The notes under the pieces were generated by a model. It saw nothing but the letters and a program-made list of their open reading frames with translations, made no database searches and had not been told where the DNA came from. The position numbers were made by a program, and so were the translations under genes. A stretch of 64,000 nt of DNA from Patescibacteria group bacterium (GTDB taxonomy: Bacteria; Patescibacteriota; Patescibacteriia; Buchananbacterales; UBA6539): positions 1,920 to 65,919 of the forward strand of contig JBAZMQ010000002.1 in assembly GCA_041649675.1 (NCBI GenBank), read 5' to 3'. Of the stretch, positions 6,388-63,675 are shown piece after piece; within the stretch, counting starts at the first letter, position 1, and each line of letters starts with the position of its first letter.

Positions 6388-6406
6388 AAACTATATAAAT
6401 ATTAAC

Positions 6407-8793: not shown

Positions 8794-8796
8794 AAA

Positions 8797-9546: not shown

Positions 9547-9756
9547 ATTTAATAAAAAATAAAATCTGCCTCAAAAAGCCAGATATAAAAACCCGCTGGC
9601 AAATTGTTTGGCTAATTTTTAGGAAATTTCTAATCTCCTTATTTATACTTTTGAAGCAACAAAGGTTATTTTTCTGGTTTTGGCCAGAAAAAGCTTTCTT
9701 TGTTTCCTCAAACTATAATATTTCAATTTACTGATTCTTAAAATAATTACTTAAGC

Positions 9757-10182: not shown

Positions 10183-11373
10183 TTACTTAAGAATTTTTGC
10201 AACCACACCAGCACCAACAGTTCGACCGCCTTCGCGAATGGCGAATTTCTGTTTTTCTTCTAAAGCGATTGGTTTAATCAAAACAATCTTTAGCTTTAAA
10301 GTATCACCCGGCATCACCATTTCCGTACCTTCTGGTAAAATTACTTCACCGGTAACATCAGTTGTTCCAATATAGAATTGTGGTTTATAACCTTTAAAGA
10401 ATGGACTATGGCGTCCGCCTTCTTCCTTGGTCAAGATGTAGGTTTCGCCTTCAAATTCGGTATGTGGGGTAATGCTGCCTGGTTTAGCTAAAACCTGACC
10501 GCGTTCCACGTCTTCTTTCTTAGTACCGCGAAGCAAGATGCCAGCGTTATCACCAGCGCGACCTTCATCCAAAGACTTGTTAAACATTTCAATACCAGTG
10601 GCAACCGTCTTGGCAATTGGTCGTAAACCGACCAATTCCACTTCGTCGTTTAATTTGATGATACCTCTTTCAATTCTACCAGTAACTACGGTACCACGAC
10701 CTTCAATGGAAAAAATATCTTCAATCGGCATCAAGAAAGGTTTGTCGATTGCCCGAGCCGGTTCCGGAATATAATCATCAACGGCTTTCATCAATTCTTC
10801 CATGCACTTAGTCGCTTCAGGATCATTTGGATTCTCCAAAGCTTTTAAAGCTGAGCCGCGGACAACCGGAATTTGGTCGCCTGGAAATTTATATTTCTTC
10901 AATAAATCTCGGACTTCTTCTTCAACCAAATCAATCAATTCAGGATCTTTAACCTGATCAACTTTATTTAAGAAAACCACAATGGCTGGCACACCAACCT
11001 GATAAGCCAATAAAATATGCTCTCGGGTTTGAGGCATTGGACCATCAGTGGCAGCCACAACCAAAATTGCACCATCCATTTGAGCCGCACCTGTTACCAT
11101 GTTTTTGACATAGTCAGCATGGCCCGGACAGTCAATGTGGGCATAATGTCTTTTAGCGGTTTCGTATTCAACATGAGCGGTAGCAATTGTAATACCACGC
11201 TCTTTTTCTTCTGGAGCGTTATCAATTTGGTCAACTGATTTGTGTTGAGCGGAAAAACCTTTGGCGGCCAAATAATTCAAAATTGCCGCAGTTAAGGTAG
11301 TTTTACCATGGTCAACGTGACCAATTGTACCGATATTAAGGTGAGGCTTTGTACGTTCAAATTTCTCTGCCAT
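10183..11373 (-). CDS. tuf: Elongation factor Tu
   Basis: [22 protein letters not shown] motifs; 396 aa. Confidence 0.97.
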
Positions 11374-12088: not shown

Positions 12089-14194
12089 TTATTTCTTTTT
12101 ATCTTTTCCGGTTTTGATTTGCTCGGCAACATTATTTGGCACCTCAGAATAACTATCAAATTCCATATTGTATGAAGCTCGGCCTTGAGTCATTGACCGC
12201 AGTTCAGTAGCATAACCAAACATTTCCGCTAATGGTACTTTTGCTTCAATCACTTTAATTTGACCGCGATCGCGCATTTCTTCAATTTGACCGCGCTTGG
12301 AATTCAAATTACCAATCACATCACCCATGAAATTTTCCGGAGTAATAACTTCAACTTTCATTAAAGGCTCTAAAATAACCGGATTGGCGCGCCGAATTGC
12401 TTCCTGAACTGCCATTGACCCAGCAATTTTAAAGGCCGCTTCTGAAGAGTCAACTTCATGAAATGACCCATCATAAACCGTAGCGGAAACGTCAATCACT
12501 GGATAACCAGCAATTACACCTTTATCTAAAGCTTCTTTAACGCCTTTTTGAATGGCGGGAATATATTCCCGCGGAATAAGTCCACCCTTGATATCATCAA
12601 CAAATTCAAAACCTTCACCGCGACTTCTCGGCTCAACTCTTAGCCAACAATGACCATACTGACCACGACCGCCTGATTGACGAATATATTTACCTTCAGC
12701 TTCGGCTTTGCCTTTGATTGTTTCTTTATAGGCAACCTGCGGCCGGCCAACGTTAGCTTCAACTTTAAATTCCCGCTTCATGCGGTCAACAATGACTTCC
12801 AAATGTAATTCACCCATACCGCCAATAAGAGTCTGCATCGTTTCTTCATCAGATCTAACCTTGAAAGTTGGATCTTCTTCAGCCAACTTTGATAAAGCAA
12901 TACCCATTTTTTCCTGGTCTTGCTTGGTTTTTGGTTCAATGGCGACGTAAATAACCGGTTCAGGAAATACAATTGATTCCAAAACAATCGGATGCTCAGG
13001 GTCACAAAGAGTATGACTAGTAAAAGTATTTTTTAAACCAACCGCGGCGGCAATTTCTCCAGCAAATACTTCTTTGACTTCCTCACGATTATTAGCATGC
13101 ATTCTCACAATCCGACCTAAGCGTTCTCTTTCGCCAGTCGTTGAATTCATAATATAAGAGCCGGCACCAACCGTACCCGAATAAACCCGGAAAAAACATA
13201 GTTTACCAACAAATGGATCAGCTGCAATTTTAAAAGCTAAACCGCAAAACGGTTCACTGTCATCAGCCTTACGAACTTCTTCAACTTCCGGCTGACGAGG
13301 ATTAAAACCCCTAACCGGTGGAATATCCAAAGGATTTGGCAAATAATCACAAATAGCATCTAGCAATAACTGAACGCCTTTATTTTTTAAAGCCGAGCCA
13401 ACCAAAATCGGCATGATTTCATTGGCAATAACTGCTTTACGTAATGTTTGATTCAATTCTTTTAAGCCAATGGTTTTACCTTCCAAATATTGATTCAATA
13501 AATTTTCATCGTGGGCAACAATCGCTTCAATTAACTCATGACGATATTTTGCCGCTTTCTCTTTCAAGTCAGCTGGAATTTCAGTCTCAGTATAATCTTT
13601 ACCTTGTTCATCATGATAAATCCAAGCTTTTTCAGTCAATAAATTAATTACGCCCAAAAAATTACTTTCGGCGCCAATCGGCAATTGAATCGGATAAGCA
13701 TTTTTAGTTAGCCTTTCGCGAATGCTGTCTAAGTCATTATAAAAATCCGCCCCCGTGCGGTCCATTTTATTAACAAAACCAATTAGCGGCACTTTAAATT
13801 TTTCGGCTTGATGATAAACTGTTTCTGATTGCGGTTCAACTCCGGCCACGCCATCAAAGACTACAACGCCGCCGTCCAAAACGCGAAGCGATCTTTGGAC
13901 TTCAACGGTAAAATCAATATGGCCTGGCGTATCAATCAAGTTAATCCGACATTTTTCGGCTTCATCGCCTCTAGGCGCCCAAAAACAAGTCGTCGCCGCC
14001 GAAGTGATGGTAATGCCTCGTTCTTTTTCTTGTTCCATCCAGTCCATTTCCGCTGCGCCTTCGTGGACCTCACCGATTTTATGTTTTTTTCCGGTGTAAA
14101 ATAAAATACGCTCGGATACTGTTGTTTTACCGGCGTCAATATGGGCAATAATCCCTATATTTCTGGTTTTTTCTAAAGAATATTCTCGGGGCAT
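12089..14194 (-). CDS. fusA: Elongation factor G
   Basis: AHIDAGKTT and DTPGHIDF motifs; 701 aa. Confidence 0.97.
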
Positions 14195-32755: not shown

Positions 32756-33039
32756 AAATTTATTACATTTTATCTAAAGATCTTATATCTTAATCTACCA
32801 ATAATTAGATTTTACAATTATATCATAATTTAGCAAAAAAACACAAAAACAGAAATAAAATAAAAATTGCTGGTTTAAGGCATTTTTTTTAGTAATAATG
32901 ACAAAATTTGCCTTAAATAAGTAACATTTATATTATACCACAAAAAAACACCTTTTAAAAAGATGTTTTAGTCGTCCCCCCATCTTTGCTTAGAATACAG
33001 CTAGCAAAAACACACCAATCCCTTTAGAGAATTCAGTCG

Positions 33040-33125
33040 GGCCGGCGGGATTTGTTCCGATGTAAAATCGGAATCCCGACTTCACGTCGGGAAACTCCCG
33101 CCTTCGCTGTGCGCTACGGCGGGCA
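33040..33125. repeat. Cluster of three G+C-rich hairpins immediately 3' of tRNA-Pro
   Basis: Hairpins: TTCCGATGTAAAATCGGAA, CCCGAC-TTCAC-GTCGGG, CCCGCC-N15-GGCGGG. Related cores occur at 50360 and in the hairpins at 33262 and 63676. Confidence 0.6.
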
Positions 33126-33148
33126 AGCCTGCACTATAATAAAAAATT

Positions 33149-33224
33149 TGGTCGGGGTAGTGGGATTTGAACCCACGGCCTCACGCACCCCATGCGTGCA
33201 CGCTACCAACTGCGCTATACCCCG
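33149..33224 (-). tRNA. tRNA-Pro (anticodon GGG)
   Basis: Manual fold of 76 nt: 7-bp acceptor stem with C1:G72 and A73 (the bacterial tRNA-Pro identity); D arm GCGC/GCGT; anticodon loop AT-GGG-GT; T arm GTGGG-TTCAAAT-CCCAC; CCA encoded. Confidence 0.8.
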
Positions 33225-33261
33225 ACCAAATTTTCTAAGATTTTTTATAGTACACCTTTAC

Positions 33262-33298
33262 CCGCCAAAGCTTTAGCGGAGCGAGAGCGTAGGCGGGC
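33262..33298. repeat. G+C-rich hairpin CCCGCC...AGCGAGAGCGTAGGCGGG (same family as 63676)
   Basis: Shares AGCGAGAGCGTAGGCGGG with the hairpin at 63676-63716; sits 5' of tRNA-Pro. Confidence 0.55.
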
Positions 33299-33607
33299 CC
33301 GTATATTCTATCTTATCGTTAAAAAAACAAACCTGCAAGATCTCAGGTTTCCAGAAAAATTACGGAACTTCACAAGACTGGTCAAAGGTTTTGGCTTAAG
33401 TTCAGCCGGCCGTGTCAGTAATCCGGGCGGGAAAGACATAAAAGAAATACATCTTATCGCCCAATTAACTGCTTTTGACCTTTTTGGGCTCGCAGATTAT
33501 AGCTTAAAGCTAAAATCAATTTAGATACCCTACTAAAATAGTTTGTCCCAAAACTTTAACCATCGGTGAAGTTCATTTTTATTTTAACATTTAACCAATT
33601 TTTGGTC

Positions 33608-33640
33608 AAAAAAAGAAGCCCAAAAGGAAACCTTTTGGGC
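33608..33640 (-). terminator. Intrinsic terminator after the DAHP synthase gene
   Basis: GCCCAAAAGG-AAA-CCTTTTGGGC flanked by A/T runs (bidirectional design). Confidence 0.7.
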
Positions 33641-33672
33641 TGATTAAAAACGACTGAATCAAAGATCAAGAT

Positions 33673-34794
33673 CTAGGCCTGTTGGCCTCTGTGAGCATTG
33701 TGCTCAGTAATCATGGTAATCAGTTCCGGCACTCGCTCAAGCGGGATTGCCTGATCCTTGTCGCACAAAGCCTCTGCCGGCTTAACGTGAGTTTCAACCA
33801 TGACCACGTCGGGCGAATGCTTTAAGCCGTTCTGTAAATCCTCAAAGACCAGGTCTACCCGACCGGCCATATGAGAAGGGTCAAGACAAACCGGTGCCCA
33901 AGAACGACTGTGCAGCTCGTTGATCCAGGAAAAATTCGGATAGAACCGATGCGGATCATGAGTGTCGACCTTTCTTAAACCGCGAACACAAAAGATGATC
34001 TTTTGGTTGCCCGAAGGAGCACTCTTCTCGGGATCCAATCTCCCATCCTCGTCCCAAAACATCGGACCGTACAAAACCCACCCGGCCAAATCCATGAGTT
34101 CGTCAATTCGCGTCATCGTGAGGCCATGCTTGATCATAACGACAAACTCTTTCTGAAGACCAAGAGCCTCCAGCAAGCAATAGTTCTGGGTTCGGGCTCC
34201 AACCCAAAGGACTATGTCGCCTCTGTAGCTTGTACGATCACGGCACCGGCGGACAATTTCGATATCCGGACTTTCCATCACCTCCATCCAAACTGATCTC
34301 ACGTCATTGGCCGCTGCCGCCCGTAAAAAGTTTTCCAAGCCGGCCTCACCAAAACCCCGAAAACCTTCGGCCTTAGAACGCGGCTTTTTCCAGCCACCCC
34401 GAAGATCTTGGACTCCCAATTTGACCAAACCTTGAACTGTTAAACCAATGTGCTTATCAATGGCACATTGACCGGCAACCAAACGACACGGCTGGCCGGG
34501 ACCAATTAATGACCCACCAACCTCAATGAGATGATGATCACCGCCATTACGCAAGGGACTGACCTGAGACGGCGAAACCCGCAGCACCCGTTCCACGCCA
34601 TCCATCTGGAAAACGTGTTCGGGAATACTGTTGGCCTGCGCCTTACCATCTTTGAGATGGATTAAAACGGCGATAAAATGGACACCAGCCTCAGCTTGAA
34701 CTTGTGGACTAAGGCCGTAGAGAATAGCCTTTTGAACAATGGCTTCGACCCGCGAATCAGTTGCCTGAACGCCGGTAATCATTTGGATAATCAT
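33673..34794 (-). CDS. 3-deoxy-7-phosphoheptulonate (DAHP) synthase, type I-beta with N-terminal regulatory domain
   Basis: RGGWKKPRS...F.G.G, LDPSHMAGR, VMVETH motifs. ~90-aa N-terminal extension before the TIM barrel. RBS GGAGGAAG. Confidence 0.75.
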   Translation of the reverse strand: MIIQMITGVQATDSRVEAIVQKAILYGLSPQVQAEAGVHFIAVLIHLKDGKAQANSIPEHVFQMDGVERVLRVSPSQVSPLRNGGDHHLIEVGGSLIGPGQPCRLVAGQCAIDKHIGLTVQGLVKLGVQDLRGGWKKPRSKAEGFRGFGEAGLENFLRAAAANDVRSVWMEVMESPDIEIVRRCRDRTSYRGDIVLWVGARTQNYCLLEALGLQKEFVVMIKHGLTMTRIDELMDLAGWVLYGPMFWDEDGRLDPEKSAPSGNQKIIFCVRGLRKVDTHDPHRFYPNFSWINELHSRSWAPVCLDPSHMAGRVDLVFEDLQNGLKHSPDVVMVETHVKPAEALCDKDQAIPLERVPELITMITEHNAHRGQQA

Positions 34795-34843
34795 GATACT
34801 CTTCCTCCATTACTTCGTTTCTGCCTTTTGTTTATTCTTCGCA

Positions 34844-36052
34844 CTAGTCCCTGTTCCGAATAATCGGGTAGGAACCAATCACAACAACATTAATCGCAAT
34901 CTTCTTTAGCGCCCAAATCGCTAAGCGTAGCCGCCGACTTTTTTTAATGTGTCCGGCCGCATCGATAAAGAAGACATAGTCACCGAGTTGCTTCTTGGCT
35001 GTCCAAGAAACAATCATTCCCAGGTTCACACCTAAAAGCCAAAAGGGCAATAGCGACCACATCAAACCGCCCGGCTTGTTTGGCGCTTTGAAAAAAATCG
35101 TGGTTTGATCATTACCATTGGGTTTAGGTGCATCTGCACCCAGAATTAAAAACCGTGTGACATTTGTACTGGCTGGCAAATCACCGATATCGGCTAGAAT
35201 GACTTCAAGTCTATCATACTCAGTTGCGGCTTCAGGTGAAGCAATGGCCGCAAGATCATTTTGATCAGATTCGGCAACCATTTTAGCCGCTGCCGCCGTA
35301 CTGGGTGCGTCAATAATTTCCCACTCAGGATGTTGAGCCAAAATTCTTTCGCACTGCCCGCGAGGCTGATGGTGAGTAACTACCGACTTGATATCTTCTA
35401 AGCACGCGCCGGCTTTGCCAAGCAACATGTGCTTAATTGGAATTTCAACTTGGCAAACAATTCGCAATCGTAAATTAGTCGCGGCATTGACAACAAAGAA
35501 ATTCACAGTCGGATAGACAAAAGCGCCGGCGGCATTTTCAAACGGTGCCACAATCATCTCGATTAAACCTTGACCAAAGGCTTCAAGCAATTCCGGAATC
35601 GATGTGTATAGCACCAATTCATAATCATTCGGCTCCAGACCTTTGTAAGCGAAATAGCGCCTAGCGGCACTAACTGAAAAGGTACCAGCCGGCCCTAAGC
35701 AACCAAGCTTTATTTTTTGCGTTTGCATTACTGTTTCTCCCGTAAATTCCTGTTTTGACTTATCGTCAACCGAAGGTAATGGTACTTCCGGCCTTAACTT
35801 ACAAACAATTCCTAAGACCACCTGGCCCCAAAAATCAAAGGGACACTCCCCTTTGCCGCGTGGATGAACATAGACGCAACCGACGTCAACGCAACCGCCC
35901 TTCAACCGAGACTTACTTCGTAACTGACAGTGAGTCAGGTAAGGTACCAAGCCAATCCATACAAATTCAATCACTTGTACGGTTTGACGAGGACAGACTA
36001 TCTCTTGCGTCGAGCCAGGCCTTATTTCGTCAATACTGACTACTCTTGCCAT
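34844..36052 (-). CDS. pheA: Prephenate dehydratase (PDT + ACT). The PDT domain begins at MQTQKIKLGCLGP (start 35728); the ORF is open for a further 108 Cys-rich codons upstream to an ATG at 36052
   Basis: PDT motifs LGPAGTFS and ACT-like C-terminus. A tiny uORF (MRFITT) with a strong SD ends 13 nt before 36052; GGGAG lies 9 nt before 35728. Start is uncertain. Confidence 0.75.
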   Translation of the reverse strand: MARVVSIDEIRPGSTQEIVCPRQTVQVIEFVWIGLVPYLTHCQLRSKSRLKGGCVDVGCVYVHPRGKGECPFDFWGQVVLGIVCKLRPEVPLPSVDDKSKQEFTGETVMQTQKIKLGCLGPAGTFSVSAARRYFAYKGLEPNDYELVLYTSIPELLEAFGQGLIEMIVAPFENAAGAFVYPTVNFFVVNAATNLRLRIVCQVEIPIKHMLLGKAGACLEDIKSVVTHHQPRGQCERILAQHPEWEIIDAPSTAAAAKMVAESDQNDLAAIASPEAATEYDRLEVILADIGDLPASTNVTRFLILGADAPKPNGNDQTTIFFKAPNKPGGLMWSLLPFWLLGVNLGMIVSWTAKKQLGDYVFFIDAAGHIKKSRRLRLAIWALKKIAINVVVIGSYPIIRNRD

Positions 36053-36154
36053 AACCGTATCCTTTTTTAAGTTGTAATGAACCTCATGAGCAATCCTCCT
36101 TACTACCCAATTTCTAACCCCAAAATAATCAGGGACAAATATTGAGTAATAAAC

Positions 36155-36185
36155 AAAAAAACTGACCCTTAATTGGTAATCAGTT
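36155..36185 (-). terminator. Attenuator terminator of the aromatic leader (ACUGAUU-loop-GGUCAGU + U7)
   Basis: Stem plus U7 ~50 nt after the leader-peptide stop. Its 5' arm can instead pair with GUCAGUUGG at the leader's end (antiterminator). Confidence 0.6.
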
Positions 36186-36240
36186 GATTGCTTGTTTTGA
36201 GTTTTTTGCCCTATTTTTTTGCTATACCCAAACCAACTGA

Positions 36241-36300
36241 CTACCGGTCAGTAAAATAGAAACCGAAATAATACCAGTTGTTGGTTTGCAATCTTGTCAT
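36241..36300 (-). CDS. Leader peptide MTRLQTNNWYYFGFYFTDR (aromatic-rich) for pheA-DAHPS
   Basis: 7 of 8 consecutive codons are Trp/Tyr/Phe. The stop codon sits in the loop of hairpin ACUGAC-CGGUA-GUCAGU (36236-36252). Confidence 0.65.
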   Translation of the reverse strand: MTRLQTNNWYYFGFYFTDR

Positions 36301-36311
36301 AGGATATTTGT

Positions 36312-36340
36312 AGATTAACGTAATTCTTCAAATTTGTCAA
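36312..36340 (-). promoter_or_regulatory. Promoter TTGACA-N17-TAATCT driving the aromatic leader (near-leaderless)
   Basis: Same architecture as the other four modules: -35 TTGACA, -10 TAAnnT-like, ~10 nt to the ATG. Confidence 0.5.
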
Positions 36341-36349
36341 ATATCCAAT

Positions 36350-36383
36350 AAAAAGAAGCCCTAAATCATTTGACTTAGGGCTT
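36350..36383 (-). terminator. Intrinsic terminator after proB
   Basis: AAGCCCTAA-N-TTAGGGCTT + T run; abuts the -35 of the next module. Confidence 0.65.
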
Positions 36384-37127
36384 TTGGGCTAGAAAAGTGG
36401 TTCCGGGAGTACGGCCAGGGCCAAGGATCTTAGTGATGACATTTGGCTTACTGCCTTTGGCCAGATGAACGGTAATACCGGCCCTGGTAGCTTTTTCAGC
36501 GGCGATAAGCTTACTACCCATACCATTACGGTTAGAAACTTTCACACCTTCCACGCCGGCTAAGGCCTTGATGGCATCGTCAATTACCGGAACAATCGAA
36601 ATTACTTTGAGCTTACGGTTCTGAAGTCCATCAACGTCGGAAAGTAAAATCAACTTACTGGCGCCAATACCAATGGCAACAATCGCGGCCAAAGCATCGT
36701 TATCTCCCTGATGCTCCATCGCCTTAATTTCCAAAGCGGAAACCGAATCATTCTCGTTAAGAACCGGAACAATTCCGATTTCCAGTTCCCGCCGAATTAA
36801 AGCAATTGTCTTTGGGTGTTTGAAGTCTTGATGTGTCCCCTGTATCTGACTGGCAATCAACCCCCGTTTGCGAAAAGCTTCAATCCAATAAGCCATCAGC
36901 TTTGGTTGGCCAACAGATGCTGCCACCTGTTTATCAATGATTTTTTCTCCGCCCGCGACACCATTACCACAGGCAACCGCGCCTGAAGTCACAATAACGG
37001 GCCAATAGCCTTGCTGACGCAAACTGGCAATCTGTCTGGCTAACGCCCTCAAAATTCTCCTTTTGATCTTGCCGTTTTCGTCCACCAACACATTGGTTCC
37101 AATTTTAATGACCACTATCTTTTCCAA
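36375..37127 (-). CDS. proB: Glutamate 5-kinase (no PUA domain); probable TTG start at 37127 after GGAGGA
   Basis: IVPVLNENDSVSALEIKAMEHQGDNDALAAIVAIGIGASKLILLSDVDGL matches the ProB core. The ORF-track extension to 37208 runs through the attenuator terminator. Confidence 0.75.
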   Translation of the reverse strand: MEKIVVIKIGTNVLVDENGKIKRRILRALARQIASLRQQGYWPVIVTSGAVACGNGVAGGEKIIDKQVAASVGQPKLMAYWIEAFRKRGLIASQIQGTHQDFKHPKTIALIRRELEIGIVPVLNENDSVSALEIKAMEHQGDNDALAAIVAIGIGASKLILLSDVDGLQNRKLKVISIVPVIDDAIKALAGVEGVKVSNRNGMGSKLIAAEKATRAGITVHLAKGSKPNVITKILGPGRTPGTTFLAQKP

Positions 37128-37156
37128 AAGAGCATCCTCCTTTCGTTTGGTTAAAC

Positions 37157-37181
37157 AAAAAACAGCCCGGAAGTTGGGGCT
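37157..37181 (-). terminator. Attenuator terminator of the proline leader (AGCCC-loop-GGGCU + U6)
   Basis: The loop and 5' arm CCCCAACUUCC are perfectly complementary (11 nt) to GGAAGUUGGGG at 37212-37221, just after the leader stop (antiterminator). Confidence 0.6.
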
Positions 37182-37220
37182 ATTCTCTATCTTTTTATTA
37201 CAGCGCAAAAACCCAACTTC

Positions 37221-37271
37221 CTAAGGCAAAGTTGGTGGGACTGGTAAAGTTGAGTTAAAGCGTTTGTTCAT
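37221..37271 (-). CDS. Leader peptide MNKRFNSTLPVPPTLP (Pro-rich) for proB
   Basis: 4 Pro in the last 8 codons; the ATG is 6 nt after the -10. Confidence 0.6.
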   Translation of the reverse strand: MNKRFNSTLPVPPTLP

Positions 37272-37277
37272 ATCAAT

Positions 37278-37305
37278 ATCTTAGCAGATTTAAAAAATTT
37301 GTCAA
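37278..37305 (-). promoter_or_regulatory. Promoter TTGACA-N16-TAAGAT for the proline leader
   Basis: Sequence match; the -35 directly abuts the upstream terminator. Confidence 0.5.
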
Positions 37306-37335
37306 AAAGAAAAGGATTAAGCAAAGCTTAATCCT
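37306..37335 (-). terminator. Intrinsic terminator after leuA-like gene 1
   Basis: AGGATTAAGC-AAA-GCTTAATCCT + U-rich run. Confidence 0.65.
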
Positions 37336-37360
37336 TAAAATACAAAGAACACGAACAATC

Positions 37361-38929
37361 TTACTCGGCTTTAACCGTTGGGATCGGCGCATGCGCCAAA
37401 TGGTTTAGAGCGGCTACCATGGCCTGAACGCAAGCCTCAATAATGTCAGTATTAGCACCGCGACCAAAAGCAACCTGGCCATCATGAGCGATTTTGATCA
37501 TCGCCAACCCCAAAGCTTCCACGCCACCAGTGCTTTTACCAACATCAAAGTCTTCCAAAACAACTTCACCGGGCCAGAGATCACCGCGGACTAATGCTGT
37601 CTTAACCGCCTGCCAAACCGATGAGACTGGTCCGTTACCGCTACCACTGGCTTCATATTCAAAACCGTTTCTGCCTAGTAGCACTGTTACCGACCGTACA
37701 TTATCCAACCGATGATACTGGACTCGCTTGACTGTCAACAAATGCTGACTCTGAGCCGATGTGGCCACACAAGCTTCCTGCATCAACATATGTAAGTCAG
37801 CATTGTGAACTAAGGCCTTGGTTTCGGCCAACTGCAGAAAAAGCCGGTAAACTTCGTTTAACAAGTCGCCTTCAGCCTGATAACCAAGTTGATCCAAACG
37901 AGTCTGCAAGCCTTTGCGACCGGAACTGGTGCTAAGCGGAAAAGACTCACCAACCCAACCAACGCTTTGAGGCGGCATGATCTCGTAGGTATTGGCATGC
38001 TTGATCATACCATCCTGGTGAATACCCGAAGAATGGGCAAAAACGTTGCCACCAACCACCGGGGTTGTGGGTGGAATCGGCCGTTTAATAATGGCTGCCA
38101 ACAAGCGTGCCGCTGGCCCAAACTGGGTGCTGTCAATTGGACAATCCAACCGATAATACTCAGCCTGGAGCTGCAACGCCTTTACGAATGGCTCAAAACC
38201 AGTATTACCCGCTCGTTCACCAATACCGCAAATCGTGGTCTCGGCTTGCCGGGCACCATTCATGACCGCTGCCAACGAATTGGCAACAGCTAACGCTAAA
38301 TCATTATGGCAGTGACAAGATAGGATAATCCTCTTTTCTACCACTTCACGTAGCGCTGCGATTTGGGCAAACATCGAACCATACTGTTGAGGTTGAGCAA
38401 ACCCAACGGTATCAGGCAAGTTGATTATACCGGCGCCAGCCTCAATTACTGCTAAAACGATTTCCTTCAAGAAACCAATATCACTGCGGCTGGCGTCTTC
38501 AGCGGAAAACTGCACCTGACCAACATGGGCAAAGCTGCAGGCAAACTTGACCGCCTCAACTGCCCTAGTGATTACCTCGGCCGGCTTCATCTTCAGCTTG
38601 AATTCCATATGCTGCGGACTGGTAGCAATGAAGGTGTGGATGCGACCCGGCTGAATAGCATTCTGCAGCGCTTCAGCCGCACGCGCAATATCTTTTTCAT
38701 TGGCCCGGGCTAATGCTGAAATGCGAGCGCCCTGAACCTGGCCAGCCGCCAGACGCACAGCAGCAAAATCAACGTCCGAAGCAATCGGAAACCCGGCTTC
38801 AATAGTGCAAACTCCCATCTTGGCGAGTTGTATTGCCAAAGTGAGCCGGTCTTCGGCTGACTGGCTGCAACCCGGTGATTGGGCTCCATCTCTACAAGTC
38901 GTATCATGAATCTCAATAACCTTAACCAT
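37361..38929 (-). CDS. leuA: 2-isopropylmalate synthase (LeuA family, with C-terminal regulatory/dimerisation domain)
   Basis: N-terminus TTCRDGAQSPG; HxH metal site SCHCHNDLALAVANSLAAV; LeuA_dimer-like C-terminus; RBS AAGGAG. Confidence 0.8.
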   Translation of the reverse strand: MVKVIEIHDTTCRDGAQSPGCSQSAEDRLTLAIQLAKMGVCTIEAGFPIASDVDFAAVRLAAGQVQGARISALARANEKDIARAAEALQNAIQPGRIHTFIATSPQHMEFKLKMKPAEVITRAVEAVKFACSFAHVGQVQFSAEDASRSDIGFLKEIVLAVIEAGAGIINLPDTVGFAQPQQYGSMFAQIAALREVVEKRIILSCHCHNDLALAVANSLAAVMNGARQAETTICGIGERAGNTGFEPFVKALQLQAEYYRLDCPIDSTQFGPAARLLAAIIKRPIPPTTPVVGGNVFAHSSGIHQDGMIKHANTYEIMPPQSVGWVGESFPLSTSSGRKGLQTRLDQLGYQAEGDLLNEVYRLFLQLAETKALVHNADLHMLMQEACVATSAQSQHLLTVKRVQYHRLDNVRSVTVLLGRNGFEYEASGSGNGPVSSVWQAVKTALVRGDLWPGEVVLEDFDVGKSTGGVEALGLAMIKIAHDGQVAFGRGANTDIIEACVQAMVAALNHLAHAPIPTVKAE

Positions 38930-39043
38930 GGCGTTTACTCCTTAATGTTTCTGCCTTTTACCTCTGCCAACCGTGGCAAAAGTTTTCTTAACTAACCTAA
39001 ATTGGAAAGGACATGTCTATCCCACAAACAGCGCGAGATAAAC

Positions 39044-39068
39044 AAAAAAGCCTTCCTGAGTGGAAGAC
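39044..39068 (-). terminator. Attenuator terminator of the leucine leader (GUCUUCC-ACUCA-GGAAGGC + U6)
   Basis: Its 5' arm CUUCCAC is complementary to GGGUGGAAGG (39113-39122) inside the leader-ORF tail (antiterminator). Confidence 0.6.
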
Positions 39069-39097
39069 TGACTGGTATTTATCTAATGCTATTTTAG

Positions 39098-39184
39098 CTA
39101 GACACTAGTAAACCTTCCACCCTGGGGCTGGCTTAACAACAACAAACCTAGCAAGAGATTAGATTGGGGAAGGTTATATTTCAT
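39098..39184 (-). CDS. Leader peptide MKYNLPQSNLLLGLLLLSQPQGGRFTSV (Leu-rich) for leuA
   Basis: 7 Leu in 8 consecutive codons. The start of the ORF (ACCUUCCCC) can pair with GGGUGGAAGGU (1:2 pairing). Confidence 0.65.
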   Translation of the reverse strand: MKYNLPQSNLLLGLLLLSQPQGGRFTSV

Positions 39185-39194
39185 AGATAATAAT

Positions 39195-39223
39195 AACTTA
39201 CACTACCGGTTTAATTTTGTCAA
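39195..39223 (-). promoter_or_regulatory. Promoter TTGACA-N17-TAAGTT for the leucine leader
   Basis: Sequence match; 10 nt to the ATG. Confidence 0.5.
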
Positions 39224-39240
39224 TAATTATAGCTATTTAG

Positions 39241-39276
39241 AAAAAACCTATAGCTTCGCTTGGGCAAAGCTATAGG
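39241..39276 (-). terminator. Intrinsic terminator after the 90-aa gene
   Basis: CCTATAGCTT-N10-AAGCTATAGG + U6. Confidence 0.65.
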
Positions 39277-39305
39277 TTAGCAATTAAGGTACAATTCCTC
39301 TTTGG

Positions 39306-39578
39306 TTAGGCTAGGCCGTAGGACTCTAACACCATCTGCCGGTTAATCATCGATGGACCAACAACCGAACCGGTAAAAATCAAAACCTCTGGTCCTTGCA
39401 ATAAGGCCACAACGCGGCAAGAACCGCCAACGCCTCGGTTAAACTCAAGACAATGCTGGTCAGTAGAGCCGTTAACCCTTAACCCACCGCCTGGCCTAAC
39501 TTCAATTCTGACTCCTTCATAGATAGTAGAACTGCCCGGCCCTACCGGCACTCGTTTGGTTGGTAATGGCTTTTCCAT
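39306..39578 (-). CDS. Hypothetical 90-aa Gly-rich protein under the Val-rich leader
   Basis: Strong RBS AAGGAG; no recognisable domain; high G+C like its neighbours. Confidence 0.5.
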   Translation of the reverse strand: MEKPLPTKRVPVGPGSSTIYEGVRIEVRPGGGLRVNGSTDQHCLEFNRGVGGSCRVVALLQGPEVLIFTGSVVGPSMINRQMVLESYGLA

Positions 39579-39626
39579 AGTAATACTCCTTAGTTTGTTC
39601 TGCCTTGTTAATTTGCGGAAATAAAC

Positions 39627-39650
39627 AAAAAACTAGTCCTTTTAGACTAG
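39627..39650 (-). terminator. Attenuator terminator of the valine leader (CUAGUC-UAAAAG-GACUAG + U6)
   Basis: Regions 1-4 are CUAGUC/GACUAG/CUAGUC/GACUAG. The 1:2 hairpin (39694-39710) lies within the leader-ORF tail. Confidence 0.6.
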
Positions 39651-39677
39651 CTGGCTGTTTTGCTTTCTTGCTACTGC

Positions 39678-39755
39678 TTAAATACCAAACCACCTAGTCT
39701 TATGACTAGTTACGACTACGACAACGCTCAAGATTTGGCAAGCAATAGATTTCAT
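39678..39755 (-). CDS. Leader peptide MKSIACQILSVVVVVTSHKTRWFGI (Val-rich)
   Basis: Five consecutive Val codons (GTT GTC GTA GTC GTA). Confidence 0.6.
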   Translation of the reverse strand: MKSIACQILSVVVVVTSHKTRWFGI

Positions 39756-39761
39756 AAACTC

Positions 39762-39791
39762 AGCTTAGCAAATTCCAAAAAGACTTGTCAA
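39762..39791 (-). promoter_or_regulatory. Promoter TTGACA-N18-TAAGCT for the valine leader
   Basis: Sequence match; 6 nt to the ATG. Confidence 0.45.
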
Positions 39792-39837
39792 ATATTAGCA
39801 ATTCGTATGTGCGTATTCGTAACGCTATTTGCATACT

Positions 39838-39873
39838 AAAAAAAGACCGACTACTGAGAAACTCAATAGTCGG
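39838..39873 (-). terminator. Intrinsic terminator after LeuA/CimA-like gene 2
   Basis: GACCGACTA-N-TAGTCGGT + U6. Confidence 0.65.
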
Positions 39874-39890
39874 TTTGAAATCAAAGGACA

Positions 39891-41438
39891 TTACTGGTGG
39901 TGGTTTTGGTTGCAGATGTTAATGGCTGCTTCAGCCGCATAAATTGCCGCCATCACCTGGTCAGTATCCAAGCCAACGGTTTGGAATTCGCCCTCACCAT
40001 TTGGCCCTTTCCAGCGGATATTGGCTTGCACAATAGCCGCATAAGTTCCGCCAGGCGGAATCTTGAGATCGTAGTCAATTAGCTTGGGTACTGAAATCTT
40101 ATGCTGCTTGGCCCACTTGACCAAGGCGTTCATAAAAGCATCAAATCCGCCATCACCATGAGCGGAAATCTCATATTGCCGCTTATAATAAACGATAGTA
40201 GCTGCAGCGGTTGCCCGGCGACCAATCGTTGACTGGGTCGTGGCATGCTCGACTCGAAAAACAATCACGTCAGGCCGATTCAAGACTTCAGCAATAATGT
40301 AAGGCAGGTCAGCAATGGTTACCGGCTTACCTTCATCGCCCAGTTTGGTGACTCTAGTAGAGACAGCATTGATTTCTTCGTCATTCAGAGTCAGGCCAAA
40401 ACGGGCAGCGTTACTGCGAATACTAGCCTTACCGGAAAGTTTGCCAAGAGAATGCTCAACTCTAATGCCTAAACGGCCAGCCGTCAGACATGGATGAACA
40501 TAGAGCCCGGCCTTAAGATCACCATCAACATGGACACCGGCGGTGGTAACGAAAACATTGCCAGCGATTGGTTTGCTCGGCGACACTCGTCGACCAGACA
40601 TCATGGCAACCACTTGGCTAGCCGGGCGAAGGTGAGCTTCTTGCACTCCGGTGCAAAAACCGCGCAGATGATCGGTAATACCCACTACCACCTCATCCAA
40701 AGCCGCGTTGCCGGCTCTTTCGCCTAAGCCATTAACGGTTAAGTGAACACCAGAGATAGCCCCAGTTTTAACCGCCGCCAACGAATTGGCAACAGCCAAA
40801 CCGTAGTCATTGTGACCGTGAAAGTCATAGCGAAGCTTAGGCTGCCAGCGACTAGTTTGAGTGATAAAGTCAGCAACCTGCCAAGGACTTAAAACGCCCA
40901 TGGTGTCACAAAGCATTGCTCGGCTAATCGGCAACTTAGCCAATCCGGCCAAAAGTTTTTTAACATACTGAGGCGAATTAAGCATGCCTTGAGACCAATC
41001 CTCCAGATACACATTAACCATCAAGCCGTGAGAAATAGCATACTTAACCGTTATTTCAATGTCTGCCAGATGCTGCTCTAAACTCTTGCGTAACTGGCCT
41101 TCGCAGTGCTTAAGCGAACCTTTGCACAGCAAGTTCATCACTTTGCCGCCACCACTCCTGATCCAGTCAACCGACTTTTTGCCGTCAACAAAACCAAGCA
41201 CTTCAATTCGATCGGCAAAGCCATGTTTGGTGGCCCACTCCATAACCGTAGCCAGCATCTGCTTTTCACCTTCAGAAACCAAAGCCGATGTCACTTCAAT
41301 ACGATCAACCATTAGTTGGGTTAAGGCATTGATGACATAAGCCAATTTCTGCTTGGGCCGAAAACTGACACCCGGCGTTTGTTCTCCATCACGCAAAGTG
41401 ACGTCAGCAACTTCAATTTGTTTCTCTTTCCTTGACAT
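39891..41438 (-). CDS. LeuA-family synthase paralog, likely (R)-citramalate synthase CimA (isoleucine branch) given its Ile-rich leader
   Basis: N-terminus DVTLRDGEQTPG; HGHNDYGLAVANSLAAV; LeuA-type C-terminal domain. The CimA-versus-IPMS assignment is inferred from the leader. Confidence 0.7.
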   Translation of the reverse strand: MSRKEKQIEVADVTLRDGEQTPGVSFRPKQKLAYVINALTQLMVDRIEVTSALVSEGEKQMLATVMEWATKHGFADRIEVLGFVDGKKSVDWIRSGGGKVMNLLCKGSLKHCEGQLRKSLEQHLADIEITVKYAISHGLMVNVYLEDWSQGMLNSPQYVKKLLAGLAKLPISRAMLCDTMGVLSPWQVADFITQTSRWQPKLRYDFHGHNDYGLAVANSLAAVKTGAISGVHLTVNGLGERAGNAALDEVVVGITDHLRGFCTGVQEAHLRPASQVVAMMSGRRVSPSKPIAGNVFVTTAGVHVDGDLKAGLYVHPCLTAGRLGIRVEHSLGKLSGKASIRSNAARFGLTLNDEEINAVSTRVTKLGDEGKPVTIADLPYIIAEVLNRPDVIVFRVEHATTQSTIGRRATAAATIVYYKRQYEISAHGDGGFDAFMNALVKWAKQHKISVPKLIDYDLKIPPGGTYAAIVQANIRWKGPNGEGEFQTVGLDTDQVMAAIYAAEAAINICNQNHHQ

Positions 41439-41545
41439 AGACTGCTATCCTCCATGACGCCCTAGCGTCTTGTTTCTGCCTTTTTCCAAATCAATGAATT
41501 GCTAAAGAGCGTCTTACTAAAACTACTGGTTCAAGCAAGACAATC

Positions 41546-41574
41546 AAAAAAGCCTTCCGAGTGGAAGGCTTTTT
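41546..41574 (-). terminator. Attenuator terminator of the isoleucine leader (GCCUUCC-ACUC-GGAAGGC + U6)
   Basis: Perfect 7-bp stem. The antiterminator partner GGGUGGAAGC is at 41608-41617, and the 5' end of the leader ORF CUUUCCACC gives 1:2 pairing. Confidence 0.65.
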
Positions 41575-41592
41575 GTATCGTCTAACTTGATG

Positions 41593-41673
41593 TTATCTCA
41601 TAAGAAAGCTTCCACCCTGAGGCTGGCTAATAATGATAATGCTGATAATAATGTTTTTTCTGGTGGAAAGCAT
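41593..41673 (-). CDS. Leader peptide MLSTRKNIIISIIIISQPQGGSFLMR (Ile-rich)
   Basis: 7 Ile in 8 consecutive codons. The tail SQPQGG is shared with the Leu leader. Confidence 0.65.
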   Translation of the reverse strand: MLSTRKNIIISIIIISQPQGGSFLMR

Positions 41674-41687
41674 AATTGTATTTTTCT

Positions 41688-41716
41688 ATCTTAAAGGATT
41701 ACCCAAAAAAAGTCAA
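41688..41716 (-). promoter_or_regulatory. Promoter TTGACT-N17-TAAGAT for the isoleucine leader
   Basis: Sequence match; ~14 nt to the ATG. Confidence 0.5.
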
Positions 41717-41942
41717 GCCAAACAAAAGATTTATCTATCTTTAACAAAAATTAACCTCCAAGCTATATTTGCGCTGCCCAGGCAAAAACATAGCCTAAAA
41801 TTGAGAGGGTTAACATAATAGCAAAAATGGATAAACCCAAAAACGTACCGGCTTCAGTCAAACTTTTTAACCGCGGCTTTGGCTTACAGCGATAATTGTG
41901 GCTTAAATATGGCATTAATAAAAAAAATAAAAACCCAATTAA

Positions 41943-42119
41943 TTAGCTGATATGATCATCAACGAATTTAATCAGGTCTTTTTCTAAAACACGATAAGTT
42001 TTGTGGCCAATTTTGGCTGCTCGTAATTTTTTCGAACTAACCCAACGGTAAACCGTCTTTTGGCTTACCTTCATAATCTTGGCGACTTCCTCAAGCGTTA
42101 AAATTCCGTAATTAGACAC
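41943..42119 (-). CDS. Small excisionase-family helix-turn-helix DNA-binding protein (58 aa, GTG start)
   Basis: LTLEEVAKIMKVSQKTVYRWVSSKKLRAAKIGHKTYRVLEKDLIKFVDD matches the excisionase/MerR-type HTH pattern. Not in the ORF track because it is under 60 aa. Confidence 0.55.
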   Translation of the reverse strand: MSNYGILTLEEVAKIMKVSQKTVYRWVSSKKLRAAKIGHKTYRVLEKDLIKFVDDHIS

Positions 42120-42321
42120 AAAAATAAATTTGGTGACCTAATGGTCAACTTATTTAAATTGTACAAGATTGTGTCCACCATTGTCAAGCATAAGTAAACT
42201 ATAATAGCAATATAATATACTATTGTCCTGCATTGTCCAATACCAAAATATTCAAAATAACTAAAAAATGGCTTTTTAAGGCCATTTTTTAAAAATATAC
42301 TAAATTTTAATTCCCTACCTT

Positions 42322-42921
42322 TTAGGACTCAAACATCACGTCTTCATCAGTCCTTTTGTAGTTATCCACAATATCATTTTTCTTAAACCAAAGCTGCTCC
42401 TCATACTTAGCTTCTTCAGGGTTACCGGAAGCATGCACGATATTTCTGACCGCTCGTTTTTTAGTATTAGCCAAAGCCGGCGAATCAATTGAATAATCTC
42501 CCCGAATGGTCCCTGGCGTAGCAAAAACTGGCAAAGTATTTCCGGCAATTGACCGAACATTATCAATTGCATGAACACCTTCCAAAAGAATGGCAATAAC
42601 CGGGCCGGAAGTAATAAAATCAATATTCCATTTGTTTACCATCTGGCCAATTTCTTCAGCTGACATCTTACCAAAATCTTCTCCCGGATCCATACCGTAT
42701 TTTTCATAAGTCTGCAAAGTTTTTTCCCCAATCCCTTTTAGCAATTCCTTTCGCGAATCGGGATAATGTTTATTGGCTAAATCTTTATCAGCCCAAACCA
42801 TTTTTAAACCTAAGATCTTTAAACCCATTTTTTCAAAACGGGTAATAACCTCCCCTATCAAACCACGTTTAACACCGTCAGGTTTGACTAGGACTACTGT
42901 TCTTTCTTTTCTTAATTCCAT
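42322..42921 (-). CDS. ndk: Nucleoside diphosphate kinase (long form with insertion); start at MELRKE
   Basis: VVLVKPDGV; NIVHASGNPEEA (active-site His). The ORF-track start at 42975 would overlap the upstream receiver gene. Confidence 0.7.
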   Translation of the reverse strand: MELRKERTVVLVKPDGVKRGLIGEVITRFEKMGLKILGLKMVWADKDLANKHYPDSRKELLKGIGEKTLQTYEKYGMDPGEDFGKMSAEEIGQMVNKWNIDFITSGPVIAILLEGVHAIDNVRSIAGNTLPVFATPGTIRGDYSIDSPALANTKKRAVRNIVHASGNPEEAKYEEQLWFKKNDIVDNYKRTDEDVMFES

Positions 42922-63366: not shown

Positions 63367-63600
63367 AAACAAAAATCTCCCTTTTCGAGGGAGCGGTTAG
63401 ATCATCCATTTTAAAAACGGACGGCCACCGACTCTTAATCTCGAAGAGTTTAGTGAATTAATTAAGCTTTGATTTTAGCGACCTGACTTAGTTGAGTGCA
63501 GCATCACCCCTCGATAACTCGGGGTAATTTTTCGTTGCACTCAAAATCACAGTTGCGGACCAGTGGAGGGTTTACACCTCACTTCGTAAAACTAAAGCTT
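63367..63600 (-). promoter_or_regulatory. Cobalamin riboswitch (candidate) with terminator/RBS-sequestering hairpin CUCCCU-CGAAA-AGGGAG + U5 just before the start codon
   Basis: Core GAAGUGAGGUGUAAACCCUCCACUGGUCCGCAACUGUGA (revcomp of 63547-63585) follows the B12-element consensus ...GGUGnAAAnCC...GCnGnCCCGCnACUGUnA. Confidence 0.55.
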
Positions 63601-63675
63601 TTTGTCAACGCTATCGTATAGGCTAATTAGAATATTAGAACTTTTTAATTACCCATATCGCAATAGCACTTCATC

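Follow-up and report, generated by a model that had tools for sequence, protein, structure and literature searches.

A row of five probable leader-peptide transcription attenuators, each carrying a different amino acid run, in a Patescibacteria contig

Organization of the array

Between 33.6 and 41.7 kb of a 64-kb stretch of Patescibacteria DNA (contig JBAZMQ010000002.1, assembly GCA_041649675.1; the whole 64,000 nt stretch is called the window below), five transcription units lie on the minus strand in one shared layout. Each contains a promoter, a leader open reading frame (ORF) of 16-28 codons that lacks a Shine-Dalgarno sequence (SD) and includes a run of codons for one class of amino acid, an antiterminator/terminator pair whose terminator ends in U6-7, and a structural gene led by an SD (Table 1). 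In 5' to 3' order the runs are IIISIIII (Ile), VVVVV (Val), LLLGLLLL (Leu), PVPPTLP (Pro) and WYYFGFYF (aromatic, Aro). Each unit starts downstream of the strong terminator of the preceding one, and no promoter-like element lies between attenuator terminator and structural gene in any of the five. A model reading the letters without database searches had predicted such a row (the original prediction); all five units are present, the attenuator U-tracts finish precisely at the 3' ends it gave, 41546 (Ile), 39627 (Val), 39044 (Leu), 37157 (Pro) and 36155 (Aro), and in all five the ATG is 6-14 nt past the -10 and lacks an SD. Its promoter consensus, TTGACA-N16-18-TAAG(A/C/T)T, stands for the 16-18 nt spacer and fails at the -10 of the Aro unit (TAATCT) and the -35 of the Ile unit (TTGACT).

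The amino acid of the run matches the pathway of the downstream enzyme in all four units with an identifiable gene (Ile, Leu, Pro and Aro). The Ile run precedes a gene first described as a second LeuA/CimA-type synthase, which resolves as a CimA-type (R)-citramalate synthase with a full-length match to its best model, Leptospira CimA; the Leu run precedes a LeuA-type synthase confirmed as 2-isopropylmalate synthase above the NCBIfam equivalog cut-off; the Pro run precedes a ProB that consists of the kinase domain without PUA; and the Phe/Tyr/Trp run precedes a prephenate dehydratase (PDT) co-transcribed with a DAHP synthase (DAHPS). The label 'pheA' first given to the 402-aa ORF holds in that residues ~115-400 are PDT; these follow a Cys-rich N-terminus of ~108 aa, and no chorismate-mutase domain was found in the ORF.

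The window has 453 ATG-initiated ORFs of 12-40 aa, and a stretch with 7 of 8 residues of one class occurs in just three, the leaders of the Ile, Leu and Aro units, which hold the most extreme runs of the set; a scan of the same 453 ORFs found no further leader-like unit elsewhere in the window. A repeat finder independently picked up four similar attenuator terminators, as well as a 24-nt block, AGCCAGCCYCAGGGTGGAAGSTTT, that is 92% identical between the Ile and Leu leaders. The terminators of these two leaders are nearly identical too, and the codon run is the main difference between them, so that one chassis carries two runs in what amounts to a natural 'run-swap', parallel to the paralogy of CimA and LeuA.

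We consider it very probable that the five units of the block are independent of one another and that transcription of each is controlled by a classical ribosome-mediated attenuator with a leader peptide. This central claim of the original prediction is backed by leader conservation, footprint folding, compensatory base pairs, the match of run to pathway and negative Rfam searches, as detailed below.

Conservation of the leaders and coding constraint on the runs

All five leaders occur in identical order on the Patescibacteria contigs L083/L084, L088/L089 and L171, where the array reads Ile-CimA, Val-small unknowns, Leu-LeuA, Pro leader and Aro-unknowns/PDT/DAHPS, with CimA identities to the window of 53-62% where measured (L083, L088). 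Additional Ile, Leu, Pro and Aro leaders are found on L085, L087, L173, L174 and L175, which brings the contigs with orthologous leaders, besides that of the window, to as many as 8. Ile leader orthologues are present on L083, L088, L171, L087 (before CimA) and, in two copies, on L085, a 'Parcubacteria group' metagenome-assembled genome (MAG) that also has an aromatic leader (TFFFSYYFFWF), a possible Trp leader (SWWNSS) and a Leu/Val-type leader. The orthologous peptides include MTSTSRNIIIGIIIISQPEGGSLSTL, MKKTFTNNIIIGIIIISQPMGGSFLSS and MNSTTIIIISIIISQPWGGSFRG for Ile; MKSIATKTVVVNVVVLVTKTR, MKSTALNVLVNVVVLVSD and MKAIAILILVVVTVLV for Val; ...SSLLLLALLLLQPTGGRFTRA, ...NGLLLGLLLLSQPVGGRFTSV and MNKLSTKNLLLGLLLLQPLGGKFTRA for Leu; MFKRNNPTLPVPPSLP, MSKYWNSILPVPPTSV and MYKHFNSTYPRPPYLL... 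for Pro; and MQTIRVNNWFFNFYFFTGR, MKAHILSNSFFGFYFTNPVG and MTNQHANNYFSFYFFTDLAG for Aro. As would be expected of genuine leader peptides, both ORFs and runs are kept in frame in these independent contigs. A metagenome scan with the CimA alignment returned relatives of at most 54% identity and no more arrays, and a scan of 185,579 reference genomes with the window LeuA gave no orthologous array, its best relatives (at most 44% identity) belonging to unrelated phyla; ordinary Leu leaders were seen at three of the loci from that scan (L003, L143, L157).

Three candidate leaders on L085, containing SWWNSS (4648-4710), TLLVLVLLFVV (6316-6426) and the second Ile run (9246-9326), precede small, uncharacterised Cys-rich proteins, not enzymes.

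Pairwise codon differences within the runs were counted for Ile, Leu and Pro, the hand alignments of Val and Aro being too crude. They are mostly synonymous (synonymous vs non-synonymous: 16 vs 3 for Ile, 28 vs 3 for Leu, 11 vs 3 for Pro), and those of the Leu run include CTN<->TTR switches, indicating that selection acts on the encoded residue and not on the RNA sequence. This conservation of the leaders is the strongest evidence for the attenuator reading.

Predicted folding and translation start

In all five leaders the sequence that follows the run has an alternative pairing with the 5' arm of the terminator, as first noted from the letters. The segments 1/2/3/4 of the Ile leader are GCTTTCCACC / GGGTGGAAGC / GCCTTCCAC / GGAAGGC, and segment 2 has two alternative partners, the terminator 5' arm and segment 1 (GCTTTCCACC, 41671-41662), the 1:2 hairpin being GCTTTCCACC with GGGTGGAAGC. 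The Pro antiterminator strand likewise has a choice between CCCAACTTCC (37178-37169) and segment 1, CCAACTT (37235-37229), its 1:2 hairpin joining CCAACTT to AAGTTGG. The Pro complementarity had been put at 11 nt of perfect match; it is actually 10 nt, GGAAGUUGGG:CCCAACUUCC, 37221-37212 with 37178-37169, position 11 being a U/C mismatch.

Each folded segment began 5 nt upstream of the ATG and extended to the terminator's 3' arm; a 28-nt ribosome footprint was held single-stranded at each A-site codon, and P(terminator), the pairing probability averaged over the terminator stem, was read out for a set of 22 leaders and a further 7, the terminator having been assigned by hand for six leaders. 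P(terminator) is ~0 with the A-site on or before the run, reaches 0.7-1.0 one to three codons later and stays high until the stop. This position-dependent switch appears in 22/22 leaders of the first set and in 6/7 of the second (L172 is ambiguous), in line with the predicted behaviour of a terminator that is off with the ribosome on the run and on once it has passed. For the five window leaders, P(terminator) at the stop minus that at mid-run is 0.47-0.95; when the upstream part was dinucleotide-shuffled 100 times, 0-1 shuffles per leader equalled this switch size. The end of the run coincides exactly with the modelled switch point; in Pro leaders P(terminator) is 0 on the Pro codons and at least 0.9 from the following codon. 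RNAalifold consensus structures are the antiterminator for Pro (14 pairs, 3 compensatory), Val (22, 3) and Leu (34, 5), and the 1:2 hairpin plus terminator for Aro, while a mixed Ile alignment gave 5 compensatory among 12 pairs. The Ile leaders of L085 and L087 have the same architecture built from unrelated stem sequences.

Leaders that instead bound an amino acid or uncharged tRNA independently of the ribosome, as a T-box or riboswitch with incidental small ORFs, could also contain terminator/antiterminator pairs, which occur in both mechanisms, and T-boxes govern amino-acid genes in many Gram-positive bacteria. We reject this reading as extremely improbable, because Rfam searches at gathering thresholds and at E<=10 gave no T-box, riboswitch or leader family: T-boxes and riboswitches are without a match in 33000-42500, even at E<=10, and in 8 related loci at the gathering score, with no T-box at that score anywhere in the window, and the leader families have no gathering-score match in the window or the 8 loci, Phe_leader on the Ile unit and Thr_leader on the Pro unit scoring below threshold (34.8 and 23.4 bits against 55). 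The leaders are, moreover, merely ~110-145 nt long from ATG to U-tract, and neither in-frame ORFs with synonymous run changes nor a run that ends at the modelled switch point fits a riboswitch.

The Ile, Leu and Val runs do look like short transmembrane segments, and each hairpin with its U-tract is a genuine terminator-like site, so the small ORFs might be considered functional hydrophobic or aromatic micro-proteins (membrane peptides, toxins) followed by terminators of their own, the enzymes being separate genes. This is very improbable, given that no unit has a promoter-like element after the attenuator terminator, that the Pro leader is not hydrophobic, and that the C-terminal parts of the peptides are constrained as RNA, the SQPxGG block common to the Ile and Leu leaders being the antiterminator strand. 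Micro-proteins would also leave the 4/4 match of run to enzyme and the position-dependent switch unexplained.

Returning to the attenuator reading, an SD is absent from 29/30 leaders and present at 7/7 structural-gene starts. The -10-to-ATG distance is 6 nt in 6/6 Pro and 4/4 Val leaders, 11 nt in 6/7 Aro leaders (with a conserved ATATCCT before the ATG in those so spaced) and 6-15 nt in Leu and Ile leaders. The missing SD and the short distance suggest that the leaders are probably translated from leaderless or near-leaderless mRNAs, and the Val leader, with its ATG 6 nt past the -10, would be effectively leaderless.

The proline unit

A search with ProB identified a tight clade of ~10 short kinases, four of which were looked up (L172-L175). 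In L173 (MIKRNSSTLPQPPVLE) and L174 (MAKRFNSISPVPPTLP) the Pro leader is the same as in the window, and in L172, which is not in an array context, a different Pro-rich leader (…TPNPVSPSPV…) is followed by a terminator. The motif P-x-P-P is invariant in the 4 genomes compared and present in 6/6 array-type Pro leaders. This invariant motif contains a di-proline, and it is conceivable, if unlikely, that the Pro leader senses the capacity for Pro-Pro elongation (the status of elongation factor P, EF-P) instead of, or besides, proline supply. Stalling at Pro codons is the means by which the proline-codon leader ORF mgtP of Salmonella acts (PMC3641672), and in L088 and L171 the same Pro leader stands before a tRNA-like gene and not before proB. 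In five genomes, however, the gene immediately after the leader encodes glutamate 5-kinase, which catalyses the committed step and is inhibited by proline, and the remaining four units of the array are plainly specific to an amino acid.

The original prediction knew no precedent for a proline-sensing leader. This is too strong, because the leaders mgtP (of mgtCBR) and mgtL (of mgtA) in Salmonella are proline-codon ORFs that sense tRNA-Pro charging (PMC3641672); what stands is that no leader-peptide attenuator on a proline-biosynthesis gene was found in the literature searched. Like the Pro unit, mgtP has a short ORF with clustered Pro codons at the base of an alternative stem, and stalling at low prolyl-tRNA-Pro favours read-through. 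Unlike it, mgtP is SD-led and part of a long, multi-signal leader of Mg2+-transport and virulence genes, and its authors contrast it with most attenuators, which use an intrinsic terminator (PMC3641672). The Pro unit is a minimal, probably leaderless leader with a canonical hairpin and U6 upstream of proB, which would give direct end-product feedback, and its sequence is unrelated to mgtP or mgtL as described in that paper. A proline-codon leader gating proB through a canonical intrinsic terminator would be an addition to the known attenuators.

Proposed mechanism

In the mechanism we propose, a sigma-70-type promoter would start the transcript at, or a few nt before, the SD-less leader ATG, and a ribosome would translate the 16-28 codons while RNA polymerase makes the downstream hairpins. 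When the cognate aminoacyl-tRNA (Ile, Val, Leu, Pro, or Phe/Tyr/Trp) is scarce, the ribosome would stall on the run and leave the segment 3' of it free to pair with the terminator 5' arm, and this antiterminator would permit read-through into the gene. With charged tRNA the ribosome would reach the stop and cover that segment, the terminator hairpin with its U6-7 would form and transcription would end. The genes under such control would be committed or branch-point, allosterically regulated enzymes, together with conserved uncharacterised proteins including the Val-controlled 90-aa protein. Committed and branch-point steps of these pathways are normally feedback-inhibited.

This conclusion must be tempered by several points that weigh against it. 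Without a ribosome the equilibrium fold of most leaders is the antiterminator, unlike classical superattenuation; on the folding model, an untranslated leader would terminate only if the 1:2 hairpins, which exist, formed faster. The Aro terminator stem is weak, at about -4.6 kcal/mol. The Pro run is short (4 Pro in the final 8 codons), its PP motif can slow ribosomes whatever the proline supply, proB in L175 lacks a leader, and the Pro attenuators of L088 and L171 precede low-scoring tRNA-like genes. The run-to-pathway logic holds for 4 of the 5 units, the cargo of the Val unit being an uncharacterised protein. If the remaining pathway enzymes were missing, induction of a committed step would not restore the amino acid. 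Finally, the basis is computational, and it is from this that we infer the transcription start sites, the translation of the leaders, its coupling to transcription and amino-acid-dependent read-through.

Genomic context and possible origin

Genes typical of the candidate phyla radiation (CPR) flank the array: a giant surface protein, ComEC, NDK, response regulators and an HTH_17 ORF. Databases record the 90-aa and CimA proteins in a 'Patescibacteria group bacterium' MAG as well as in ENA and Logan assemblies, and the NCBI source name, 'Patescibacteria group bacterium', confirms the CPR-type genome that had been predicted. The window uses the standard genetic code, its 57 ORFs ending in TAA (37), TAG (14) and TGA (6). 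A tRNA(UCA)-like gene in L088 had raised the possibility of UGA recoding; for the window this was rejected, since 6/57 ORFs terminate at TGA and code 11 leaves the long ORFs uninterrupted.

The six genes of the block have a GC content at third codon positions (GC3) of 0.43-0.53 (mean 0.478), compared with 0.334 +/- 0.038 and a maximum of 0.435 in the other 51 ORFs. Such a shift is one sign of a recent genomic island, which would here have been inserted at tRNA-Pro from a non-CPR donor and whose attenuators would reflect the biology of that donor and may be non-functional in the CPR host; a tRNA-Pro(GGG) gene (33149-33224) lies ~400 nt downstream of the array's closing terminator, an excisionase-like HTH_17 ORF is directly upstream of the array, and the block LeuA has no relative above 44% identity in the 185,579 reference genomes. 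We nevertheless regard such an island as improbable: there is no integrase among the called genes and no att-like or tRNA-derived direct repeat, and array, leaders and the non-coding RNA (ncRNA) downstream are common to several Patescibacteria contigs with differing upstream neighbours, each GC3-shifted. The nearest CimA and ProB relatives are also CPR, and the array promoters are of the TTGACA/TAnnnT form seen in neighbouring host genes.

The GC3 offset is itself a consistent feature, array genes, uncharacterised ones included, lying ~0.10-0.15 above their flanks in three genomes; an ABC-transporter pair inserted in the L083 array has values of 0.40 and 0.49, below the surrounding array genes. 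Candidate causes are cassette transfer, ancient foreign origin or special codon selection.

The arrays hold only branch-point enzymes (CimA, LeuA, ProB, DAHPS, PDT, chorismate mutase), which raises the question of how much amino-acid synthesis these symbionts perform. Parcubacteria have been described as largely without amino-acid biosynthesis (PMC4508563). A speculative and rather doubtful extension is that the array, instead of serving ordinary autonomous biosynthesis, is a compositionally distinct, possibly exchangeable, starvation-sensing set of cassettes in CPR symbionts that otherwise lack complete amino-acid pathways. If so, translation of a leaderless leader peptide would let each cassette gauge how far one tRNA species is charged and switch on a committed or feedback-controlled step only, or the small 90-aa or Cys-rich proteins, or tRNA-like RNAs, the purpose being to complement or manipulate host metabolism, and the runs would be built-in amino-acid labels for uncharacterised CPR proteins.

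Comparison with known attenuators

The units resemble the enterobacterial attenuators (trpL, leuL, ilvL/ivbL, pheL, thrL, hisL) in their leader ORF of cognate codons, mutually exclusive hairpins, U-tract terminator, 1:2 / 2:3 / 3:4 segment logic and control of the first enzyme(s) of a pathway. They differ in falling outside the Rfam sequence and structure families (Leu_leader, Phe_leader, Thr_leader, His_leader, Trp_leader, leu/phe leader; best scores 34.8 and 23.4 bits, below the gathering score of 55), in being SD-less with a start 6-14 nt past the -10, in placing one committed-step gene and not a whole operon under each attenuator, with five in a cassette row, and in their Ile-only/CimA and Pro/proB specificities and CPR host. 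Another comparison is with Corynebacterium glutamicum, in which leader peptides have been described upstream of trpE, leuA, ilvB and aroF (PMC3890552): there too leaders stand on single committed-step genes (leuA, ilvB and aroF, the DAHP synthase) and an aromatic-rich leader precedes DAHP synthase, and Corynebacterium commonly translates leaderless mRNAs. Corynebacterium belongs to another phylum, however, the leaders have no sequence relationship, its units are scattered where those of the window are arrayed, and Pro and CimA units were not found described. T-boxes, a functional analogue in Firmicutes, share with the mechanism proposed here the sensing of specific tRNA charging and a terminator/antiterminator switch at amino-acid genes, but the window has no T-box sequence or structure and sensing would be by translation of a leader ORF.

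In the literature searched we found no link of CPR or Patescibacteria to leader peptides or attenuation, and no description of an Ile-only leader on citramalate synthase. The mechanism is classical; what goes beyond the known cases is the CPR host, the Pro leader on proB, the Ile-only leader on CimA, the cassette arrangement and the chassis common to the Ile and Leu leaders. Classical attenuation would then operate, or at least be strongly conserved, in the candidate phyla radiation.

Table 1. Coordinates of the array units and associated features in the window and in related contigs
Feature	Contig	Coordinates	Strand	Details
Ile promoter	window	41688..41716	minus	-35 TTGACT, 17 nt, -10 TAAGAT; same geometry in L083, L088, L171
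Ile leader ORF with stop	window	41593..41673	minus	MLSTRKNIIISIIIISQPQGGSFLMR; no SD; Ile run 41652-41629
Ile antiterminator 5' strand (segment 2)	window	41605..41617	minus	GGGTGGAAGCTTT
Ile attenuator terminator	window	41546..41574	minus	AAAAAGCCTTCCACTCGGAAGGC + U6
CimA-type (R)-citramalate synthase	window	39891..41438	minus	515 aa; LeuA_dimer regulatory domain
Val promoter	window	39762..39791	minus	-35 TTGACA, 18 nt, -10 TAAGCT
Val leader ORF with stop	window	39678..39755	minus	MKSIACQILSVVVVVTSHKTRWFGI; run 39725-39711
Val segments 1/2	window	39686..39710	minus	ACTAGTCATAAGACTAGGTGGTTTG; alternative partner for terminator 5' arm
Val attenuator terminator	window	39627..39652	minus	AGCTAGTCTAAAAGGACTAG + U6
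Uncharacterised protein	window	39306..39578	minus	90 aa
Leu promoter	window	39195..39223	minus	-35 TTGACA, 17 nt, -10 TAAGTT
Leu leader ORF with stop	window	39098..39184	minus	MKYNLPQSNLLLGLLLLSQPQGGRFTSV; run 39157-39134
Leu antiterminator 5' strand	window	39110..39122	minus	GGGTGGAAGGTTT; inside 24-nt block shared with Ile leader
Leu attenuator terminator	window	39044..39069	minus	AGTCTTCCACTCAGGAAGGC + U6
2-isopropylmalate synthase LeuA	window	37361..38929	minus	522 aa; above NCBIfam equivalog cut-off
Pro promoter	window	37278..37305	minus	-35 TTGACA, 16 nt, -10 TAAGAT
Pro leader ORF with stop	window	37221..37271	minus	MNKRFNSTLPVPPTLP; P-x-P-P at 37244-37233
Pro antiterminator 5' strand	window	37212..37221	minus	GGAAGTTGGG
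Pro attenuator terminator	window	37157..37181	minus	AGCCC-CAACTTCC-GGGCT + G U6; detected as the palindrome on plus strand
Glutamate 5-kinase ProB	window	36375..37127	minus	kinase domain only, without PUA; TTG start 37127
Aro promoter	window	36312..36340	minus	-35 TTGACA, 17 nt, -10 TAATCT; conserved ATATCCT before ATG
Aro leader ORF with stop	window	36241..36300	minus	MTRLQTNNWYYFGFYFTDR; run 36276-36253
Aro antiterminator 5' strand	window	36229..36241	minus	GTCAGTTGGTTTG; pairs with CAATCAACTGA (36190-36180)
Aro attenuator terminator	window	36155..36185	minus	stem ACTGATT/GGTCAGT + U7
402-aa ORF	window	34844..36052	minus	Cys-rich N-terminal domain + prephenate dehydratase
Type I-beta DAHP synthase	window	33673..34794	minus	N-terminal regulatory-type extension; co-transcribed with 402-aa ORF
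Strong terminators closing units	window	39874-39846, 39278-39245, 37336-37312, 36383-36356, 33641-33617	minus	
Terminator at array end	window	33617..33641	minus	
HTH_17 excisionase-like ORF	window	41943-42119	minus	58 aa; promoter TTGACA-18-TACAAT, near-consensus
GC3-shifted span	window	33673-41438		
GC3-shifted span	L083	1794-12942		
GC3-shifted span	L088	1015-8696		
Cys-rich family	window	35728-36052	minus	
Cys-rich family	L084	9621-9905		
Cys-rich family	L088	6436-6648		
Transmembrane + zinc-ribbon ORF	L083	4850-5047		
Transmembrane + zinc-ribbon ORF	L088	4170-4316		
Transmembrane + zinc-ribbon ORF	L171	11022-11171		
Transmembrane + zinc-ribbon ORF	L174	~637-720		
ncRNA	window	33321-33574	minus	
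ncRNA	L083	~13052-13322		
ncRNA	L088	~8790-9040		
ncRNA	L171	~16220 (start)		
tRNA-like gene	L088	6086-6156		
tRNA-like gene	L171	13129-13239		
tRNA-like gene	L083	3704-3784		
Inverted repeats	L171	~9680-9790, 10700-10830, 12810-12900, 13250-13350		

Uncharacterised proteins under predicted leader control

The codon run names the amino acid to which a gene answers, and thereby provides a functional handle on uncharacterised proteins, here the 90-aa family (Val) and the Cys-rich and ~150-aa proteins (aromatic). The 90-aa protein has no Pfam or NCBIfam match. An exhaustive HMMER search places it in a family of ~17 proteins of ~90 aa (a word-index search matched nothing beyond the protein itself); additional HMMER matches in giant Sushi-repeat and similar proteins were judged compositional. 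Its AlphaFold2 model is all-beta with a C-terminal helix and confident (pLDDT 93), and has no significant structural neighbour in the PDB, so that the protein may represent a new small fold.

The Cys-rich domain of the 402-aa ORF is homologous to free-standing proteins of 70-94 aa under the aromatic leader in L084 and L088. Two more uncharacterised families occur in Aro and Val units, one of ~150 aa and one of ~110 aa with the motif RRRxRL..LRH.C.PF. Against Pfam, nine other leader-controlled proteins and the window's Cys-rich domain gave only one NUDIX and two weak PDT-like matches. On L175 the Aro leader precedes a chorismate mutase. Between the Aro attenuator and the 402-aa ORF of the window, a strong SD (AAGGAGG) is followed by a 6-codon mini-ORF, MRFITT and a stop (36060-36090, minus), which may serve translational coupling or re-initiation. 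In four relatives a tiny ORF of 48-65 aa, with a transmembrane segment and a zinc ribbon (CxxC...CxxC), lies between the Leu attenuator and LeuA; it is not in the Leu unit of the window.

Other elements in and around the arrays

Directly downstream of the array in every array genome is a structured ncRNA of ~220-250 nt that has a promoter (TTGACC-17-TAAAAT at 33609-33581 in the window) and a terminator of its own, located in the window between the closing terminator of the array and tRNA-Pro(GGG). The RNAalifold consensus of three sequences has 72 pairs, of which 13 show compensatory double changes, and is closed by a long helix, GAACTTCAC.../...GTGAAGTTC; Rfam returned nothing for this ncRNA, even at E<=10.

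Inside the arrays, some attenuator terminators are immediately followed by a low-scoring tRNA-like gene (Rfam tRNA 35.6-38.8 bits). In two cases the attenuator is that of the Pro unit, proB being missing there, and ARAGORN calls the L088 copy 'SeC(tca)'; a third gene, of 84 nt and called 'His(gtg)', comes after the Val attenuator. This placement suggests that a leader-peptide attenuator controls a tRNA-like RNA.

Four copies of the motif AAGGCAGAA(A)C lie in the block (minus-strand starts 41482, 39606, 38957, 34827), 25-45 nt upstream of the CimA, 90-aa, LeuA and DAHPS gene starts, and one more lies elsewhere in the 64 kb. The motif, which is not kept in L083 or L088, could be bound by a protein or mark a processing site. 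In L171, long imperfect inverted repeats of AGGAAAGTAGGAGAGTAG-like words lie between the upstream terminator of each unit and the next promoter. Elsewhere in the window, an AdoCbl (B12) riboswitch (63422-63613, minus; 56.2 bits, at the Rfam gathering threshold) stands upstream of a 609-aa ORF (61543-63372).

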